Source: Candidatus Doudnabacteria bacterium RIFCSPHIGHO2_12_FULL_48_16 (lineage in GTDB: Bacteria > Patescibacteriota > Doudnabacteria > UBA920 > O2-02-FULL-48-8). Taken from it: a DNA stretch of 64,000 bases. The stretch lies in NCBI GenBank assembly GCA_001780035.1, contig MFEY01000007.1:331146-395145 (forward strand). The letters are read 5' to 3'. Shown one piece after another: positions 15,591 through 50,166 of the stretch (position 1 is its first letter; each line of letters begins with the position of its first letter). A program made the position numbers and the translations under genes. The notes under the pieces are model-generated. The model was not told where the DNA came from, ran no database searches, and saw only the letters and a list, made by a program, of their open reading frames with translations.

Positions 15591-18170
15591 TTATTTGGCG
15601 ACATTGATTGATATGCTGTTTTGAATTGTCCCCTGGCCGGGCACATGGGCAAATGCCGAGAGCCGGTGGGCACCGTTATCAATATGCGGAATGGTGAAAC
15701 TAAAGGGCGAATTATTTTTGGTTCCAATCTGCTGATCATCCAGATAAAGTTCGACTGACGTCGGTACGAACCCCGTAACGTCAACCTGCACGGTCAGCGG
15801 CAGCTTATTGATGATCTGATTATTGACCGGCGCGACAAAGCTCACCAGCTTGTCATTGCTGCCCGGCGTTCCATCCAAGCCGCCGCTCCCGGCTGACCCA
15901 TCATCCTCTTCAGTCGGCGGGTAGGCAAAGCCGGCGGCCAGGGCCCAAGCCCGAACCGGGTTTTCCCAGTTGGGATTATTGGGCATTTCCGAATGCAGCA
16001 CGGTGTAGACCCGGTTTTCCAGCGCATCCGGCGGGGTCAGGCTGGAGGCTTTTAAGCCGTTGTATTTGTTGATGGCCACGGAGATGTGGACGTCGTCGAA
16101 ATCTTTGGGCAGGGCGAAGCTGGCAAAAACTTCGCTCTTGGTCGACGGGGTCAATTCGGTCGGCAATTTACCGGAAATAGCATCCACCACCACGCGCTGG
16201 ATGCCCGGCGGCTCAGCAAAGGTTTCCGCCGGCGTTCCTTTGAGCGCATTGAGCATAAACTGACGCCAGATCGGAGCGGCCACGATGACGCCGTCCGCAC
16301 CGCGGCGCATGACGGAAGAATCGTTGTTGCCCACCCAGACGCCGGCTACCAGCGAGGGAGTAAAGCCCAGGGCCCAGCCGTCCTTCCATTCTTGGGTCGT
16401 GCCGGTTTTGGCGGCCACCACCCGACCGGGCAAAGTTAACGGCGAGTTGGGCCCGAAGACAAATGCGCGCGCGTCGTTGTCAGTCATGACGCTGTCAACT
16501 TCGTAGGCGACTTGGGGGTCAATCACTTCGCGGCCCTCGCCCGGCTTGTATTCTTCCAAGACGTTGCCCTGGCCGTCCTCCACTTTCAGAATCGGTGTTG
16601 CCTCGTGCCGGATTCCCATATTGGCAAAGACCCCCATGGCTGAGACGTGGTCCAACAGTTTAAGTTCACAGCCGCCCAAAACCAGGGCCAAGCCACAGCG
16701 ATCGGCGCTGATGTCCGAGGTAATGCCCATGTCTTTGGCCGTATCAATGGCATTTTGGACGCCGACCAGGGCCAGGGTTTTAACCGCCGGGATGTTTAAC
16801 GATCCGGCAAACCCTTTGCGGATATTCACGATCCCGTGGTTGGCGCCGTCATAATTGCCCGGGGCGTATTCCTTGCCGCCGTAGGTGCCAAACACGGTTC
16901 GCACATCCACCAGCATCGTAGCCGGGCTCAATCCCTGTTTGAAGGCGGTGGCGTAAATGTAAGGTTTGATTGAGGATCCGGGCTGGCGTTCGCGCAGGGC
17001 GACATTGACCTGGCCGTCGTGTTCATCGTCAAAATAATTGCGTGAGCCGACCATGGCCAGAATCTCGCCGGTCTTTGGATCAATTGCAACCAGCGAGGCA
17101 TTGGAGGCGTTGTTTCGTTTTTCATTGATGGTCACACCATCGGTAACCGCTTTTTCCGCTATTTGCTGCAGGTTCCAGTCCAGCGAGGTCGTAACTTTGA
17201 GGCCGCCCACTTCCAAAGTTTGTTCGCCGTATTTTTCCGCCAGCAAGCTTTCCACGTAGAGCACGAAGTGCGGGGCCAGGATCGCGTCGCGGACTTTGTT
17301 GAAGGTCACTTTTTCCGCCTTGGCGGTCTCTGCCTGATCATGAGTGATGTATCCTTGCTCGGCCATTTGATCGAGCACGTAATTTTTTCGGCCATCGAGC
17401 CGGTCGCGGTTCGGCCCGCTCGGGTTATAAAAACTTGGCGCCTGGGGCAGGGCCGCGACATAAGCGGATTCGGCCAGGGTCAGATCGTGGGCGTGTTTGT
17501 CGAAGTAAGTCTGTGCGGCCGCTTCGATCCCGTAGGCATTCTGGCCGTAAGGAATTTCGTTTAAATAAAAACCGAGAATCTGGTCTTTGGAATAGCGCTG
17601 ATCCAGTTCGACGGCCAATACAATCTCTTTGATTTTCCTGACCCAGGTTTTTTCCCGCGTCAGAATGGCGTTGCGCACAAATTGCTGGGTGATGGTGGAG
17701 CCGCCCTGGCTGAGACTGCCGGAGGTTAAATCCACCCAAATCGAACGAAGAATTCCGGTCCAGCTGACCCCGGAGTTTTTATAAAAATTTTTATCCTCGA
17801 TTGCGATCGCGGCCTGCTTGGCATAATCGGGAATCTCGCTTAAGTCAATCAAAGTCCGCTTGGCCTCGCCATGAACTTCATACAACAGCGTCGTGCCGTC
17901 GCGGGCGTAAATTTTGGTCGATTGGGGAATCAGCCGCGTATCCAGTTTGGCCGGGTCAGGCAGGGTCAGGGCGATGACGGTAAACGAGACGCTGACAAAG
18001 AGCAGGCAGAACCCGCCGAAGTAAAGGACGAACCGGGTGATTTTTTGGCGATAAGCCTTGTCGCTGCGGAATCGTTCCACGAACCGGCGCGGCCAGGCGG
18101 TGGCCAAACCCCAGATTTTTTTGATCGAAAATTTGCGGTGTTTGTTCCAATTGGATTGGATGTAAGCCAT
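15591..18170 (-). CDS. class A penicillin-binding protein (glycosyltransferase + transpeptidase)
   Basis: 859 aa; GT51 motifs IEDKNFY, GGSTITQQ; transpeptidase SSIKP and KTGTT; extra C-terminal beta-rich domain. Confidence 0.92.
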   Translation of the reverse strand: MAYIQSNWNKHRKFSIKKIWGLATAWPRRFVERFRSDKAYRQKITRFVLYFGGFCLLFVSVSFTVIALTLPDPAKLDTRLIPQSTKIYARDGTTLLYEVHGEAKRTLIDLSEIPDYAKQAAIAIEDKNFYKNSGVSWTGILRSIWVDLTSGSLSQGGSTITQQFVRNAILTREKTWVRKIKEIVLAVELDQRYSKDQILGFYLNEIPYGQNAYGIEAAAQTYFDKHAHDLTLAESAYVAALPQAPSFYNPSGPNRDRLDGRKNYVLDQMAEQGYITHDQAETAKAEKVTFNKVRDAILAPHFVLYVESLLAEKYGEQTLEVGGLKVTTSLDWNLQQIAEKAVTDGVTINEKRNNASNASLVAIDPKTGEILAMVGSRNYFDDEHDGQVNVALRERQPGSSIKPYIYATAFKQGLSPATMLVDVRTVFGTYGGKEYAPGNYDGANHGIVNIRKGFAGSLNIPAVKTLALVGVQNAIDTAKDMGITSDISADRCGLALVLGGCELKLLDHVSAMGVFANMGIRHEATPILKVEDGQGNVLEEYKPGEGREVIDPQVAYEVDSVMTDNDARAFVFGPNSPLTLPGRVVAAKTGTTQEWKDGWALGFTPSLVAGVWVGNNDSSVMRRGADGVIVAAPIWRQFMLNALKGTPAETFAEPPGIQRVVVDAISGKLPTELTPSTKSEVFASFALPKDFDDVHISVAINKYNGLKASSLTPPDALENRVYTVLHSEMPNNPNWENPVRAWALAAGFAYPPTEEDDGSAGSGGLDGTPGSNDKLVSFVAPVNNQIINKLPLTVQVDVTGFVPTSVELYLDDQQIGTKNNSPFSFTIPHIDNGAHRLSAFAHVPGQGTIQNSISINVAK

Positions 18171-18210
18171 GTTTTTAATTGTATCAAAAAATTGCTATAA
18201 TGTCTTTACT

Positions 18211-19362
18211 ATGAATGAATTACTCACCCGCTCGATTTCCGAAATTATTGACCGGAAGCATTTGGAAGATAATTTGAATTCCGGCCAAAAACTCCGGGTA
18301 AAATTGGGCATTGATCCCACGGCCGCCAAGCTTCATTTGGGTCACGCCGTCGTGCTGCGGATTTTGCGGCGTTTTCAAGACGAAGGACACACGGCGGTCT
18401 TAATCATTGGCGACACCACCGCGTCCATCGGTGACCCCTCGGGGAAAAACGAAACGCGGCCGGCGCTTACTGCCGAACAAATTGCCAAAAATTTTGCTAC
18501 GTATGAAAAACAAGCCTTGAGGATTTTGGACAAGTCTCGGCTGGAAGTCCGCTGGCAATCCGAGTGGTTCAAAAATTTCAATCTTAGCGATGTGATCAGG
18601 GAAGCAGCCCAACTTTCCGCCGGTTGGATTCTTTCCCACGAAACTTTCCGCAATCGTTTGCAGCACGGTCAGCCCTTGGCTTTTCATGAATTATTGTATC
18701 CGTTGGTCCAGGCCTATGACTCGGTGGCGGTGCAGGCGAATGTCGAACTGGGCGGGCCGGATCAAAAATTTAATTTGTTAACCGGTCGGGAGCTGATGCG
18801 GTCACACAAAATGGAGCCCCAAGACATTGTCTTGGGGAAATATTTGATCGGTACCGATGGTCAGAAGATGGGGAAAACCACCGGTAATTTTATCGCTCTG
18901 GAAGAAGAGCCATTTGAAATGTTTGGTAAAGTTATGGCCTTGGTGGACGAGGTTGTGATTGATTATTTTGAGAACGCGACCACTGTGCCGGTGGATGAAA
19001 TTAAAACAATTGAAAAAGAACTGAAAAAAGGGACCAATCCCCGTGACATTAAAAAACGGCTGGCGGCGGAGATTGTTACTTTGTATCATGGCGAGCAGGC
19101 CGCCAGTGTAGCCTCGGATGAATGGCAGAAAGTTTTTAGCAACAAAGAAAAACCCACGGAGATTGAAGAGGTCAAGGTGAAATCAGAAAATATAGTTGAT
19201 GTTCTTGTTGAAACAAAACTAGCCTCAAGCAAAAGCGAGGCCAAGAGATTGATTGAGCAGGATGGTGTAAGGATTGATGATCAGATTGCTTCCGAGGAAT
19301 CAGACACAAGTTCTGGTAATTTAATTCAAGTTGGAAAAAGAAGGTTTATAAAAATTAAGTAA
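18211..19362 (+). CDS. tyrS: tyrosine--tRNA ligase
   Basis: HLGH (HIGH) and KMGKT (KMSKS) motifs, C-terminal S4-like domain; start at MNELLTRS (M15 of tracked ORF). Confidence 0.9.
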   Translation: MNELLTRSISEIIDRKHLEDNLNSGQKLRVKLGIDPTAAKLHLGHAVVLRILRRFQDEGHTAVLIIGDTTASIGDPSGKNETRPALTAEQIAKNFATYEKQALRILDKSRLEVRWQSEWFKNFNLSDVIREAAQLSAGWILSHETFRNRLQHGQPLAFHELLYPLVQAYDSVAVQANVELGGPDQKFNLLTGRELMRSHKMEPQDIVLGKYLIGTDGQKMGKTTGNFIALEEEPFEMFGKVMALVDEVVIDYFENATTVPVDEIKTIEKELKKGTNPRDIKKRLAAEIVTLYHGEQAASVASDEWQKVFSNKEKPTEIEEVKVKSENIVDVLVETKLASSKSEAKRLIEQDGVRIDDQIASEESDTSSGNLIQVGKRRFIKIK

Positions 19363-19471
19363 TTACTCCCCCGTTGACTCTCTTCTGACGCACCCCCTCT
19401 TATATTAAGAGGGGGTTTTAGATTGCTTATTTACTCCTCCCCTTAGAATAAGGGGAGGGTGGGAGGGGTTA

Positions 19472-19500: not shown

Positions 19501-19562
19501 AATGAGCTTACTTGACCGGGCGAATCCGGTCCGTATGGCGACGAAAGGCAGCAGGGGGAAAA

Positions 19563-19826
19563 ATGAAGAACGCAGGAGCAAAGCGACAGACCGGTGGCGA
19601 GAGCGGAACCGATCGGCCATCGCGTCGCCGCACGCCGACCGAGCGCATGCCGACGCGGGAGCCGGGCACGGGCGGCGACGCGGATGACCAGGGCGGTCAG
19701 TCCGATCGCCCGGCGTGGGACACGCCGACCGACCGCTTGCCCACGAGCGACCCGCCGCCGGCCGATGAAGCGGATACGGCCGACGCGGCGCCCGATCGCG
19801 GACAGGCCACCACGGCGATCGCGTAG
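19563..19826 (+). CDS. hypothetical low-complexity Pro/Thr/Asp/Arg-rich protein (87 aa) in a very GC-rich patch
   Basis: SD GGGGG 4 nt before ATG 19563; internal repeat TPTERMPT / TPTDRLPT; strong terminator follows; every frame is open here, so coding status is uncertain. Confidence 0.35.
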   Translation: MKNAGAKRQTGGESGTDRPSRRRTPTERMPTREPGTGGDADDQGGQSDRPAWDTPTDRLPTSDPPPADEADTADAAPDRGQATTAIA

Positions 19827-19849
19827 AACGCGACGCGGACAACCAGATG

Positions 19850-19890
19850 GACCGGGTGTGCAGTGACAGTGCACATCCCGGTCTTTTTTT
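19850..19890 (+). terminator. strong intrinsic terminator
   Basis: GACCGGGTGTGCA-GTGACAG-TGCACATCCCGGTC followed by T7. Confidence 0.8.
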
Positions 19891-19891
19891 A

Positions 19892-19941
19892 TTCCGACCT
19901 CGACAAAGTCGAGCGTCGGAACTCCGACCGAAGCGTCGGAG
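19892..19941. repeat. two-hairpin TTCCGAC/GTCGGAA module (copy 1)
   Basis: TTCCGAC-CTCGAC-AAA-GTCGAG-C-GTCGGAA then CTCCGAC-CGAAGC-GTCGGAG; shares TTCCGACC, GCGTCGGAAC and (opposite strand) CCGACGCTTCGG with 32170-32304. Confidence 0.75.
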
Positions 19942-19946
19942 TTTTC

Positions 19947-20411
19947 TTATCGTCCGATTCCAGACCAGGCGATCGCGCACGCATCTGCGGCATCATCGGG
20001 TTTGGGAATTTTTTTCAGTTTCAAAAGTTTGACGATCATGGTCTGCACTTGTTTTTTGTCCGCCTTGCCATAGCCGGTCGTGGACATTTTGACTTGCAAC
20101 GGCGTGACTTCAATCATTTTGAGTCCGGCTTCAGCCAAAGTTACCATGACCATGCCCCGCGCCTGCCCGACGGTCATCGCGGTTTTGACATTGGTTTCGA
20201 AAAACAACGATTCGATGCAGGCGCTGTCCGGTTTTAATTTTTTGATTAAGGTGGTTAAATCTTTTTTGATTTCCAAAAGCCGGGCCGGCTCGGCCGTCCC
20301 CGCCTTGGTCGTGATACAGCCGCATTCCAGCAAAGAAGTTTCCTTGCCAGTATGTTTGAGGAATGCATAGCCGGTGCGCGCTATCCCTGGATCAATTCCT
20401 AGTATGATCAT
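19947..20411 (-). CDS. ruvC: crossover junction endodeoxyribonuclease RuvC
   Basis: 154 aa; MIILGIDPGIARTGYA start typical of RuvC. Confidence 0.92.
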   Translation of the reverse strand: MIILGIDPGIARTGYAFLKHTGKETSLLECGCITTKAGTAEPARLLEIKKDLTTLIKKLKPDSACIESLFFETNVKTAMTVGQARGMVMVTLAEAGLKMIEVTPLQVKMSTTGYGKADKKQVQTMIVKLLKLKKIPKPDDAADACAIAWSGIGR

Positions 20412-32006: not shown

Positions 32007-32169
32007 TTAGGATTTGTGGGGGTAATCTCAGCAGAACCGTATCAAATTTAAACTGTCGGGTCAATGCTAACATGTGGATTGTCTGTGCAGAATAAGATAT
32101 AATATTTGGAGTTTGCGGTTCAATATGGGATGGCGTCATGGCCGAGCGGTTAGGCAGAGGTTAAGTCTG

Positions 32170-32304
32170 CCCCGACGCTTCGGCCGGGGTTCCGACCCAA
32201 AATTTTGGACTTGGTCTGGTGGCCGAGCGGTTAGGCAGAGGTCTGCAAAACCTCGTACACCGGTTCAACTCCGGTCCAGACCTCCAAAATTTTGGCGTCG
32301 GAAC
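32170..32304 (+). repeat. two-hairpin TTCCGAC/GTCGGAA module (copy 2) carrying a tRNA as cargo
   Basis: UUCG-capped hairpin 32170-32189; stem TTCCGAC 32190-96 / GTCGGAA 32297-303; 12-nt palindrome CCAAAATTTTGG at 32197-208 and 32284-95 flanks the inner tRNA. Confidence 0.75.
32213..32286 (+). tRNA. tRNA-Cys (GCA), intact, CCA encoded
   Basis: hand fold: GGTCTGG/CCAGACC acceptor, GAGGT-CTGCAAA-ACCTC anticodon arm, ACCGG-TTCAACT-CCGGT T arm, U73, CCA. Confidence 0.88.
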
Positions 32305-32416
32305 AAAACCTCGTACACCGGTTCAACTCCGGTTGACGCCTCCAGAATAATAAAATGTAGGTAAACGTAGGAGGATAGAGATTGTCTTTGTCTTTACCAT
32401 CAGATATACTTTTGTT

Positions 32417-32899
32417 ATGAGTAAAGACAGAAAAAAGAAGTGGACAGGAGACCAGTTAAAGAAAGCGGCACAGGAATCCTTTAGTATACGACAGGTAATC
32501 TTTAAGCTGGGTTTAATTCCTGCTGGAGGCAATTATGTTCAAATTCAAAATTATTTAAGGTCGCTTCATATTGATACATCTCATTTTAAAGGGAAGAGTT
32601 GGAATAAAGGGCTAACGGGATTAGTGCGAGCGAGTATGCCCATAGAGCAGATTCTTGTTAAAGAAAGTTATTATCAGAGTTATAAACTAAAAAAGCGTTT
32701 GTTTTCCCTCGGATTGAAGGCCAGGAAATGCGAAGAATGCGGTTGGGCAAAAACTACACCAGAAGGTCGGCTGCCACTAGAGCTAGATCATATTAATGGT
32801 AACCGTAACGACAATAGGTTAGAGAACCTAAGAGTTCTTTGTCCCAACTGCCATAGCTTGCAACCAACTCATAGAGCTAGGAACAAGAAGAAAAAATAG
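32417..32899 (+). CDS. HNH endonuclease (free-standing, homing-type)
   Basis: 160 aa; CEECGW...LELDHINGNRNDNRLENLRVLCPNCHS HNH/zinc motif. Confidence 0.85.
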   Translation: MSKDRKKKWTGDQLKKAAQESFSIRQVIFKLGLIPAGGNYVQIQNYLRSLHIDTSHFKGKSWNKGLTGLVRASMPIEQILVKESYYQSYKLKKRLFSLGLKARKCEECGWAKTTPEGRLPLELDHINGNRNDNRLENLRVLCPNCHSLQPTHRARNKKKK

Positions 32900-33786: not shown

Positions 33787-33844
33787 TTTCCGAATTTTCG
33801 CGGGGTGAATTCCCCGCCGCCGCAGGCGGCGAAATGCGTTCGGA
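33787..33844. repeat. compact three-way-junction palindromic element (TTCCGAA/TTCGGAC arms)
   Basis: TCCGAA/TTCGGA and TTTCG/CGAAA outer stem enclosing CGGGG-TGAATT-CCCCG and CCGCC-GCA-GGCGG hairpins with no unpaired junction nucleotides. Confidence 0.6.
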
Positions 33845-49743: not shown

Positions 49744-49989
49744 ATGAGATTTTACGCATATATTCTCAAAAGCCAGAAGCACGGCAGATATTATGTTGGA
49801 TCAACAAATGATCTTCAAGATCGATTGAAAAGACATAACGCCGGTTATAATAAATCAACCAAGGATGGCGTTCCTTGGGAACTAGTCTATAGTGAAACTT
49901 TTTTGACGAAGCAAGAAGCATACAAAAGAGAATTAAAAATAAAAAGTTATAAGGGCGGTGAAGCCTTTAAGCGCTTGATAAATTTATAA
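49744..49989 (+). CDS. GIY-YIG nuclease family protein (small, stand-alone)
   Basis: 81 aa; FYAYILKS...GRYYVGSTNDLQDRLKRHN GIY-YIG motif. Confidence 0.85.
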   Translation: MRFYAYILKSQKHGRYYVGSTNDLQDRLKRHNAGYNKSTKDGVPWELVYSETFLTKQEAYKRELKIKSYKGGEAFKRLINL

Positions 49990-49993
49990 ATAC

Positions 49994-50083
49994 GGAAGCG
50001 TGGCCGAGTGGTTGAAGGCACGGCTCTCGAAAAGCCGCAGAGGTGAAAGCCTCTCGTGAGTTCGAATCTCACCGCTTCCGCCA
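49994..50083 (+). tRNA. tRNA-Ser (CGA)
   Basis: hand fold: GGAAGCG/CGCTTCC acceptor, CGGCT-CTCGAAA-AGCCG, long variable arm, GTGAG-TTCGAAT-CTCAC, G73 CCA. Confidence 0.88.
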
Positions 50084-50091
50084 AGAAATCA

Positions 50092-50166
50092 AGCTAGTTC
50101 GTCCGGTCGAATGACCGGACGCCCGATCGGATGATCGGGCGACTCCCACCCTCTCCGCCAAGAAAT
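50092..50166 (+). repeat. twin-hairpin insert plus a second copy of the tRNA-Ser 3' end
   Basis: GTCCGGTC-GAAT-GACCGGAC and GCCCGATC-GGAT-GATCGGGC, then CCCACCCTCTCCGCCAAGAAAT, which matches the tRNA 3' end + flank (last 13 nt identical). Confidence 0.65.

Follow-up and report, generated by a model that had tools for sequence, protein, structure and literature searches.

A probable non-autonomous double-hairpin insertion element next to ruvC of a Candidatus Doudnabacteria bacterium, with relatives in tRNA genes, spacers and protein genes of other bacteria

The DNA analysed here, referred to as the window, is a stretch of 64,000 nt from a Candidatus Doudnabacteria genome (Candidate Phyla Radiation, CPR; Patescibacteria) assembled from Rifle groundwater; the RuvC, HNH and GIY-YIG proteins encoded in it were each identical to Doudnabacteria RIFCSPLOWO2 proteins named at NCBI. 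A 50-nt sequence at nt 19892-19941, next to ruvC, was considered, with a probability of about 0.75, to be one copy of a non-autonomous double-hairpin insertion element. The unit behaves as one discrete block, found at some homologous sites and missing from others. It consisted of a first hairpin, P1 (NN-CCGAC GCTTCG GTCGG-NN), and an abutting second hairpin, P2, in which the arms TTCCGAC and GTCGGAA enclosed a variable inner hairpin and usually a bulged C, both hairpins being built on a CCGAC/GTCGG core. Units were 39-57 nt in length with a G+C content of 44-75%. They started with YNCCGAC and ended with GTCGGRR, and these ends were inverted repeats of each other over 5-7 nt as well as the feet of two separate hairpins. 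A total of 43 distinct copies was collected from a genome scan, a metagenome scan and a covariance-model search, all of which began with YNCCGAC or YNCTGAC.

A second copy in the window interrupts a tRNA-Cys gene near 32 kb (Table 1), and a relationship between the two had been proposed in a reading of the letters made before any search (the sequence-only reading), which had also transcribed 19892-19941 exactly: the plus strand reads TTCCGAC-CTCGAC-AAA-GTCGAG-C-GTCGGAA, then CTCCGAC-CGAAGC-GTCGGAG. The relationship was borne out. Within the window, TTCCGACC occurred only at 19892 and 32190 and GCGTCGGAAC only at 19913 and 32295, and CCGACGCTTCGG was found at 32172 and its reverse complement at 19928; these shared 8-, 10- and 12-mers were confined to the two loci. 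The minus strand of 19915-19941 (CTCCGACGCTTCGGTCGGAGTTCCGAC) was colinear with the plus strand of 32170-32196 (CCCCGACGCTTCGGCCGGGGTTCCGAC), 24 of 27 bases matching, and both copies ran on from this 27-nt core to a closing GTCGGAA. When up to 3 mismatches were allowed, a degenerate 27-mer matched only the two loci and nothing in 100 shuffles, and hairpins of the form TCCGAC...GTCGGA numbered 2, versus 0.05 expected. It was also correctly noted that the long hairpin lies on the same strand as in the 32-kb copy and the short one on the opposite strand, and that the second pair of the short hairpin is compensated (T-A versus C-G); in addition, the P1 helix of the 32-kb copy has one uncompensated A.C mismatch. 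An interpretation as a DNA-uptake sequence was rejected, as TCCGAC and GTCGGA occurred 14 and 19 times in the 64 kb, versus about 16 each expected.

Copies of the same unit were found well outside the window. Scanning of one genome per species (596 Gb) with the pattern GACGCTTCGGNCNNNNTTCCGAC returned 37 matches, versus about 17 expected by chance. Fifteen of these were full units, in which P1 was fully complementary through compensated outer pairs and GTCGGRR lay 5-23 nt past TTCCGAC; one more (L047) was a degenerate copy, and the remaining matches looked random. The metagenome scan, whose pattern was written to leave out the window's own copies, gave 28 matches, about 24 of them complete. 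The host genomes belonged, among others, to Doudna-, Berkel-, Brenner-, Uhr- and Saccharibacteria and, by the labels of metagenome-assembled genomes (MAGs), to Flavobacteriales, Chitinophagaceae, Saprospiraceae, Bacteroidetes, Gammaproteobacteria and Methylomirabilis. Two to three copies were present in several genomes, such as Doudnabacteria JACPFQ (L015, L038 and L044, the last two with additional copies recognised only by the covariance model) and a member of Berkelbacteria (L029 and L037).

The covariance model was built from 26 copies with the P2 interior trimmed to 8 nt, since a full-length MAFFT alignment misplaced the 3' arm. In the window it matched only the 52-bit and 29-bit loci and a weak candidate at 50101-50140. 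The GC-rich, three-way-junction-like sequence at 33787-33844, which had been suggested as a more distant relative, gave no match even at E = 10 and was rejected as a family member. On the fetched loci, additional diverged copies were recognised, possessing the loop variants GCTACG and GCTGCG and compensated P2 arms (CTCCGAC/GTCGGAG and CCCCGAC/GTCGGGG); because they were seen by the model only, exact-pattern scans undercount the family. The P2 apex ranged over 5-23 nt of unrelated hairpins, and the P1 apex could be expanded too, as observed in diverged copies. Among the 26 copies, 97.3% of the pair cells were paired, a value reached by none of 500 shuffles, and sliding the partners by 1-3 columns lowered the pairing to 18-56%. 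P1 pair 1-20 was CG and UA in 12 copies each, pair 2-19 was CG in 14, UA in 7 and GC in 4, and pair 4-17 covaried; pairs 1-20 and 2-19 were not fixed by the search pattern and their covariation is therefore unbiased. Each inner P2 pair showed 3-4 pair types, the counts of the three innermost pairs depending on the 8-nt trimming. The two-hairpin structure is thus under selection. A change from U-A to U-G in the outer P2 pairs was confined to one strand and suggests that it is one particular single strand that folds.

These findings agree with the dispersed structured family predicted by the sequence-only reading, which had made its case depend on further copies being found and on the shared words exceeding chance: further copies came from the genome and metagenome scans, empty sites were found for both window copies, and no shuffle reproduced the match. 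Rfam contained no family for the motif at gathering score and nothing relevant at E up to 10. A scan of viral contigs gave 0 matches, BLAST against plasmid and phage collections gave no match to the unit, and a full-text literature search with the core sequence retrieved only unrelated primers. A search of the literature on miniature inverted-repeat transposable elements (MITEs) or interrupted tRNAs in Patescibacteria retrieved only a preprint on a group I intron, in which a hairpin module is not mentioned.

Comparison with relatives showed the unit as a clean insertion. In L057 (RuvC 83% identical), the homologous terminator hairpin and GC-rich open reading frame (ORF) that precede the element in the window were kept, and the ruvC stop ran directly into the A-run, the 50 nt being absent; in the closest relative, L056 (RuvC 86% identical), the ruvC spacer was only 39 nt. 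For the 32-kb copy, the empty site was found in another Doudnabacteria species (L088) with the same gene order, that is, S1 protein, 224-aa protein, tRNA-Cys, HNH gene and tRNA-Leu. The L088 tRNA-Cys (1361-1434) was uninterrupted and differed by 2 nt from the joined outer halves of the window gene, in which the 134-nt unit sits between G34 and C35 of the anticodon. At all of the tRNA targets (L029, L075, L036/L084, L031/L082, the window and L061) the unit split the tRNA sequence precisely at its own first and last bases, and no target base was repeated; a check for target-site duplications, as had been suggested, thus revealed none where the target is known. The tRNA-Pro of L029 was cut at 12/13, with an intact copy 47 nt downstream, and the tRNA-Ala of L075 was cut at 12/13 by a unit in the opposite orientation, with an intact copy 32 nt upstream. 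In L036/L084 and L031/L082, the unit lay within tRNA-Asp 3' fragments, with a GIY-YIG ORF standing between the fragment and the intact gene. Copies of the element occurred in both orientations, and the left and right flanks of 34 copies had no common motif, CTG^ recurring only at some tRNA-loop sites. Searching the window by tblastn with the genes flanking Doudnabacteria copies gave no orthologues to compare.

Nine of the 43 copies lay within 100 nt of an intact tRNA (about 5% expected) and 5 more were inside tRNA fragments, together about one third of the copies. In Doudnabacteria, four copies (L015, L025, L044 and the window) started 0-6 nt past a stop codon, in sense orientation, and were immediately followed by the A-run of a convergent terminator. 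Seven copies were located inside long continuous ORFs, in either orientation. Homology on both sides was retained in four of them: SecA, in whose DEAD domain the element forms part of a 27-residue insert; cysteine desulfurase, with the Aminotran_5 Pfam domain split at profile position 171/172; methionyl-tRNA synthetase (MetRS), with an insert of about 29 residues between conserved blocks; and UvrC, in a linker. The others were in the N-termini of ParB and GalT and in the C-terminal region of a class II ribonucleotide reductase (RNR). The length was a multiple of 3 in 6 of the 7 in-ORF copies versus 7 of 27 elsewhere (Fisher p = 0.007), and the core, read from its sequence, is stop-free in all six frames. 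An open frame kept in this way fits selection on a translated insert and not splicing; therefore, the in-gene copies stay in the gene product. In the SecA locus (L078, 6960-7200), the flanks of the element form a further inverted repeat of 9-10 bp (GCGCTCCGA...TCGGAGCGC), and the same domain has a second insert, of about 22 residues, some 70 residues further upstream; at this locus one hairpin element may lie inside another.

The tRNA-Cys copy carries a complete second tRNA-Cys in its P2 apex. The sequence-only reading had regarded this apex as one CCAAAATTTTGG palindrome split by the tRNA; instead, two full copies of the palindrome, at 32197-32208 and 32284-32295, flank the inner tRNA. The same nested unit was present on the minus strand of a 1.2-kb metagenome contig (L061, 580-760), which had in common with the window the outer tRNA-Cys halves, P1, the P2 arms, both CCAAAATTTTGG palindromes and the inner tRNA-Cys with its GGTCTGG acceptor. 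The two nested regions were 90% identical over 224 nt. The organisms are distant, with a neighbouring protein sharing 35% and the adjacent tRNA-Leu 71% identity, so the cargo form has been inherited or transferred as a unit. Besides L061, a degenerate third instance of the tRNA-Cys cargo was found in L070. The proposal that the apical loop accepts cargo therefore holds in a limited sense, namely a variable P2 apex and tRNA-Cys, and no general capacity was seen; tRNA-Cys was the only real cargo seen, and it looks like the result of one ancestral event. Insertion into the anticodon would have destroyed the resident tRNA-Cys and would have been tolerable only through the replacement tRNA-Cys in the apex. 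An intact copy adjoins every other interrupted tRNA, which is consistent with cargo being the only survival route for a single-copy essential tRNA. In the window, the bodies of the inner and outer tRNA-Cys are identical and only their acceptor stems differ, and in L061 the bodies differ, which suggests possible gene conversion between inner and outer tRNA-Cys in the window lineage.

The ruvC-side copy is free of cargo. It lies in the 584-bp spacer separating the convergent tyrosyl-tRNA synthetase gene tyrS (18169-19362, plus strand) and ruvC (19947-20411, minus strand), lying 5 nt past the ruvC stop and immediately ahead of the convergent terminator's A-run. On the plus strand it abuts the T-run of the terminator at 19848-19891, which is a neighbour outside the element. 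Two adjacent hairpins were folded on both strands, with z about -5.4. Compared with 40 other copies, its P2 interior and bulge were inverted relative to P1; the plus strand, when aligned to the covariance model, also scored 32.8 bits, and the plus-strand P2 closely resembled the P2 of Doudnabacteria copies such as L044 and L038. A flip between the 7-nt inverted arms would yield this arrangement. On the ruvC strand there was no U-run 3' of the element, the sequence there being TAAAAAAAG, and the terminator scan of the spacer, which listed on the plus strand only 19392-19416 and 19854-19878, did not include the element; thus, there is no sign that it terminates ruvC. The copy would have entered the gap separating the stop codon of ruvC from the convergent terminator's T-run, and we infer that it is passive, co-transcribed DNA of the 3' untranslated region.

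Table 1. Features of the window that relate to the double-hairpin element and its surroundings
Feature	Position (nt)	Strand	Evidence
tyrS terminator	19392-19416	+	Terminator scan
GC-rich 87-codon ORF in the 77% G+C island of the tyrS-ruvC spacer	19563-19826		
Intrinsic terminator (hairpin and T7) of the GC-rich 87-aa ORF	19848-19891	+	Homologous hairpin in element-free L057
Complete cargo-free double-hairpin element, 50 nt, P1 then P2	19892-19941	-	Covariance model, 52 bits, E 7e-14; fold; absent in L057
P2 hairpin TTCCGAC G CTCGAC TTT GTCGAG GTCGGAA	19892-19921	-	Sequence; comparison with 40 other copies
P1 hairpin CTCCGAC GCTTCG GTCGGAG, 7-bp stem and hexaloop	19922-19941	-	Sequence and fold; covariation
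Outer tRNA-Cys 5' half, ending ...GAGGT[TAAGT]CTG	32132-32169	+	Equal to the L088 5' part apart from the extra TAAGT
Second copy, 134 nt, tRNA in the P2 apex	32170-32303	+	29 bits (5' part); empty site in L088; nested unit in L061
P1 CCCCGAC GCTTCG GCCGGGG, one A.C mismatch	32170-32189	+	Sequence
P2 5' arm TTCCGAC and first CCAAAATTTTGG palindrome	32190-32208	+	Sequence
Inner intact tRNA-Cys(GCA), the cargo, acceptor stem GGTCTGG/CCAGACC	32213-32286	+	ARAGORN; Rfam tRNA, 60.8 bits
Second CCAAAATTTTGG (overlapping the CCA of the inner tRNA), bulged C and P2 3' arm GTCGGAA	32284-32303	+	Sequence
Outer tRNA-Cys 3' half, CAAAACCTCG...TGACGCCTCCA	32304-32344	+	Sequence; L088
Possible diverged relative, double hairpin 3' of tRNA-Ser, in a 64-nt insert between 13-nt direct repeats TCCGCCAAGAAAT	50101-50140	-	14.7 bits, E 0.017

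Genes for small nucleases were found near several copies. In the window, an HNH endonuclease gene (160 aa, 32417-32899) is located between tRNA-Cys and tRNA-Leu(UAA). In all 4 of the other CPR loci examined, each with an intact tRNA-Cys and one of them from Liptonbacteria, this Cys-Leu spacer held a homologue sharing 64-73% identity, and in L061 the Cys-Leu spacer (11 nt) contained no HNH gene. The gene was therefore set aside as the driver of the tRNA-Cys insertion, and it seems to encode a free-standing homing endonuclease whose site is fixed. GIY-YIG ORFs sharing 40-48% identity with the product of the window gene at 49744-49989 adjoined copies in L036, L084, L082, L070 and L073, and a partial one adjoined L031. 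When three GIY-YIG loci were sampled from the protein side, in other CPR genomes, the genes lay 4-19 nt upstream of tRNA-Ser or tRNA-Tyr, one of them with a duplicated tRNA-Ser, and the canonical element was present in 0 of the 3 loci. The window gene, encoding 81 aa, likewise ends 5 nt before tRNA-Ser(CGA) (49994-50083). The last 7 nt of this tRNA and 6 flanking nt (TCCGCCAAGAAAT, 50077-50089) are repeated at 50154-50166 around the 64-nt insert, which includes the double hairpin at 50101-50140, an uncertain member of the family.

As for the movement of the element, a DNA-level process supplied in trans and recognising the hairpins on one strand may be involved, although confidence in such a process is low. 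Several observations weigh against an insertion element. A Pfam search of 52 neighbouring ORFs revealed no transposase or shared partner except three small GIY-YIG matches, and no RAYT gene was seen in the window or among these ORFs. Contigs of the same species showed no presence/absence variation at ruvC (10 loci) or tRNA-Cys (7 of 8 loci comparable, all identical), and hence no ongoing movement was observed. A copy was found at one shared place upstream of mraZ in seven contigs (L066, L067, L073, L074, L077, L081 and L085). Two sure copies in 64 kb is a low number for a selfish repeat, and the near-constancy of a 27-nt core from phylum to phylum is unusual for decaying junk; it might reflect a host function. 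Since most copies were obtained with an exact pattern, the seeming invariance of GAC-GCTTCG-G and TTCCGAC is partly due to ascertainment, and the phylum labels, having been taken from MAG records, may include mis-binned contigs. The mraZ-upstream copies are a short version with the P2 apex TGAAAAC, situated between two terminator-like hairpins, and in L073 a GIY-YIG ORF ends about 95 nt from the copy. The only variation in the ruvC spacer of the same-species contigs consisted of a 9-nt duplication and a 1-nt indel, both outside the element; the former is a tandem duplication of AAGATAGCA between tyrS and ruvC in one strain (L007, about 2190-2210, corresponding to about 19490 of the window), and the latter is a difference in A-run length near 19420 in two other strains.

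Other explanations account for part of these data. The motif could be a conserved functional RNA (a 3'-end stabiliser, processing signal or protein-binding site) that is kept by selection and not mobile, with the ruvC copy protecting or terminating the transcript. The strong covariation, which supports a folded structure, the one-strand change from U-A to U-G, the four stop-adjacent sense copies of Doudnabacteria, the conserved position upstream of mraZ and the conservation of the core sequence across phyla are all in line with such an RNA. It is nevertheless unlikely, given that the unit lies in frame and in both orientations inside SecA, cysteine desulfurase, MetRS and UvrC, that copies occur inside dead tRNA fragments, that close relatives lack the element at the same site, that the ruvC strand has neither a U-run nor a terminator call, and that no Rfam family matches. 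A role in homing-endonuclease cassettes (small GIY-YIG or HNH genes) that target tRNA genes, whether as a functional component or as a by-product, the element being copied by break repair or disrupting the nuclease site, appears rather unlikely. GIY-YIG ORFs adjoin copies in five loci, with a partial one in L031, the window GIY-YIG gene stands beside tRNA-Ser, which is followed by a weakly similar double hairpin, and the HNH gene adjoins the nested tRNA-Cys; moreover, Paquin and co-workers reportedly found, in 2000, mitochondrial double-hairpin elements at the borders of a mobile endonuclease insert. However, most copies, including that at ruvC, have no nuclease gene nearby, the GIY-YIG loci reached from the protein side were devoid of the canonical element, and the HNH gene accompanies intact tRNA-Cys and is absent from L061 with its nested unit. 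The link may also be indirect, in that such cassettes generate surplus tRNA fragments where an insertion does no damage, and this is the simplest reading of the GIY-YIG association.

Removal from RNA as an intron-like intervening sequence, by which the outer tRNA-Cys would be restored and the inner tRNA released from the excised piece, was judged very unlikely. Exact removal of 32170-32303 does rejoin CTG^CAAA, the anticodon loop of tRNA-Cys, as it does in L061, the outer halves are still nearly identical to the intact L088 gene, and the whole region folds as a 19-bp rod capped by the tRNA. Yet the outer anticodon arm is disturbed by extra bases at the junction (TAAGT; about 10 nt in L061), other interrupted tRNAs (L029 and L075) are shortened or have no acceptor stem that can pair, and coding-sequence copies keep the reading frame, which would be needless if they were spliced. 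Splicing endonucleases for tRNA are not known from bacteria. A group I ribozyme core was also not found: at gathering score, Rfam gave only tRNAs in the window and no group I intron match, and the element is too short for one, the insert being 134 nt of which 74 nt are tRNA. As for ordinary GC-rich terminator hairpins that are alike by chance or convergence, both loci are in hairpin-rich non-coding DNA and TTTTCTT follows 19922-19941 on the plus strand. This is hardly conceivable for an identical two-hairpin unit present in dozens of unrelated genomes and inside genes, and it was refuted by the 100 shuffles, none of which gave the match, by the genome and metagenome scans and by the covariation.

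Further features were noted in the tyrS-ruvC spacer. A hairpin (CTCCTCCCCTTAGAATAAGGGGAGG, 19434-19470) just 3' of the tyrS terminator gave a sub-threshold Rfam match to NsiR4 (18.9 bits versus a gathering score of 40), which is probably due to chance. A 77% G+C island at 19512-19891, in a genome of about 47% G+C, contains the 87-codon ORF, which is of low complexity, and its own terminator. The island is missing from the closest relative with its 39-nt spacer, and three other relatives have different GC-rich small ORFs of 80-130 codons in its place. The island looks like foreign DNA inserted variably between tyrS and ruvC.

An insertion element of this kind can be compared with several known systems, among which mitochondrial double-hairpin elements (DHEs) and Rickettsia palindromic elements (RPEs) seem, by analogy, the closest in behaviour. 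DHEs are potentially mobile and near-identical across species (PMC10085805), and a passage in PMC2800124, citing fungal work, states that those inside genes are not removed from transcripts. Like the DHEs of chytrid fungi and fission yeasts and the hairpin repeats of sponge mitochondria, the element is short and G+C-rich, possesses two adjacent stem-loops, is scattered in spacers and inside RNA genes, encodes no protein and differs in presence or absence between related genomes (L057 versus the window at ruvC, L088 versus the window at tRNA-Cys). The likeness is one of structure and behaviour; DHEs belong to organelle genomes, whereas the element resides in bacterial chromosomes of several phyla and goes beyond them in its in-frame inserts in essential proteins, its strong tRNA association and its tRNA cargo. 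RPEs, which are 100-150 bp long and confined to Rickettsiales, also occur in housekeeping genes, such as that for an aminoacyl-tRNA synthetase (PMC1779305). The element shares with them an interspersed palindromic nature, locations between genes and in frame inside protein genes, and the lack of a transposase of its own, but it is only 39-57 nt, has a fixed two-hairpin plan and extends across phyla.

With the repetitive extragenic palindromic (REP) sequences and REPINs, the element has in common short imperfect palindromes with a bulge and dispersal, often at gene ends. REP, BIME and REPIN sequences are mobilised by RAYT and are thought to fold as single-stranded hairpins. The element differs from them by the absence of a GTAG head in all 43 copies, by its low copy number (two sure copies in 64 kb) and, REP and REPIN being extragenic, by its seven copies inside ORFs; from classical MITEs it differs by the absence of target-site duplication at six tRNA loci or locus pairs. 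The REP/MITE-like label of the sequence-only reading is thus apt for a dispersed structured family and otherwise loose, there being neither a GTAG head nor target-site duplication. PATEs, derived from IS200/IS605, insert 3' of a fixed 4-5-nt target without target-site duplication and have hairpins at both ends, which are subterminal with guide sequences outside, and no classical terminal inverted repeats. The element resembles them in having hairpins near both ends and no target-site duplication; however, its hairpin feet are its very ends and its flanks have no common target. Integron attC sites possess a stem with an extrahelical base and a variable apex, are located right after a stop codon and fold in a strand-specific manner, all of which has a parallel in the element. 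Unlike attC, the arms TTCCGAC/GTCGGAA do not fit RYYYAAC/GTTRRRY, P1 has no attC counterpart, and the copies are solitary rather than in a cassette array, with no integrase seen among the neighbouring ORFs. A more far-reaching and speculative proposal, to which we give little credence, is that the family is a bacterial counterpart of mitochondrial DHEs, structure-guided, protein-free and phylum-crossing, one form of which would be a tRNA replacement cassette homing into the tRNA-Cys anticodon loop with its own tRNA-Cys. Its precursor may be processed so that a split outer tRNA or a stable by-product plays a part as well, and mobilisation would rely on a common nuclease, of host or homing type, able to cleave hairpin or cruciform DNA.

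Small palindromic insertion elements are already known from Rickettsia, enterobacteria and organelles. We found no description of one sharing a 27-nt core across CPR phyla and other bacteria, or of one entering tRNA genes and essential proteins (SecA, MetRS) in reduced genomes of about 1 Mb. The lack of both target duplication and a visible enzyme suggests that the element moves by a mechanism yet to be discovered. A simple cause would then be at hand for the unexplained inserts of 13-29 residues in CPR proteins and for tRNA genes that are broken or duplicated, and the annotation of such cases could be cleaned up with a covariance model of the element. The element would also mark recent DNA exchange between unculturable lineages, and the tRNA-inside-tRNA unit may indicate how an essential single-copy gene can survive invasion.

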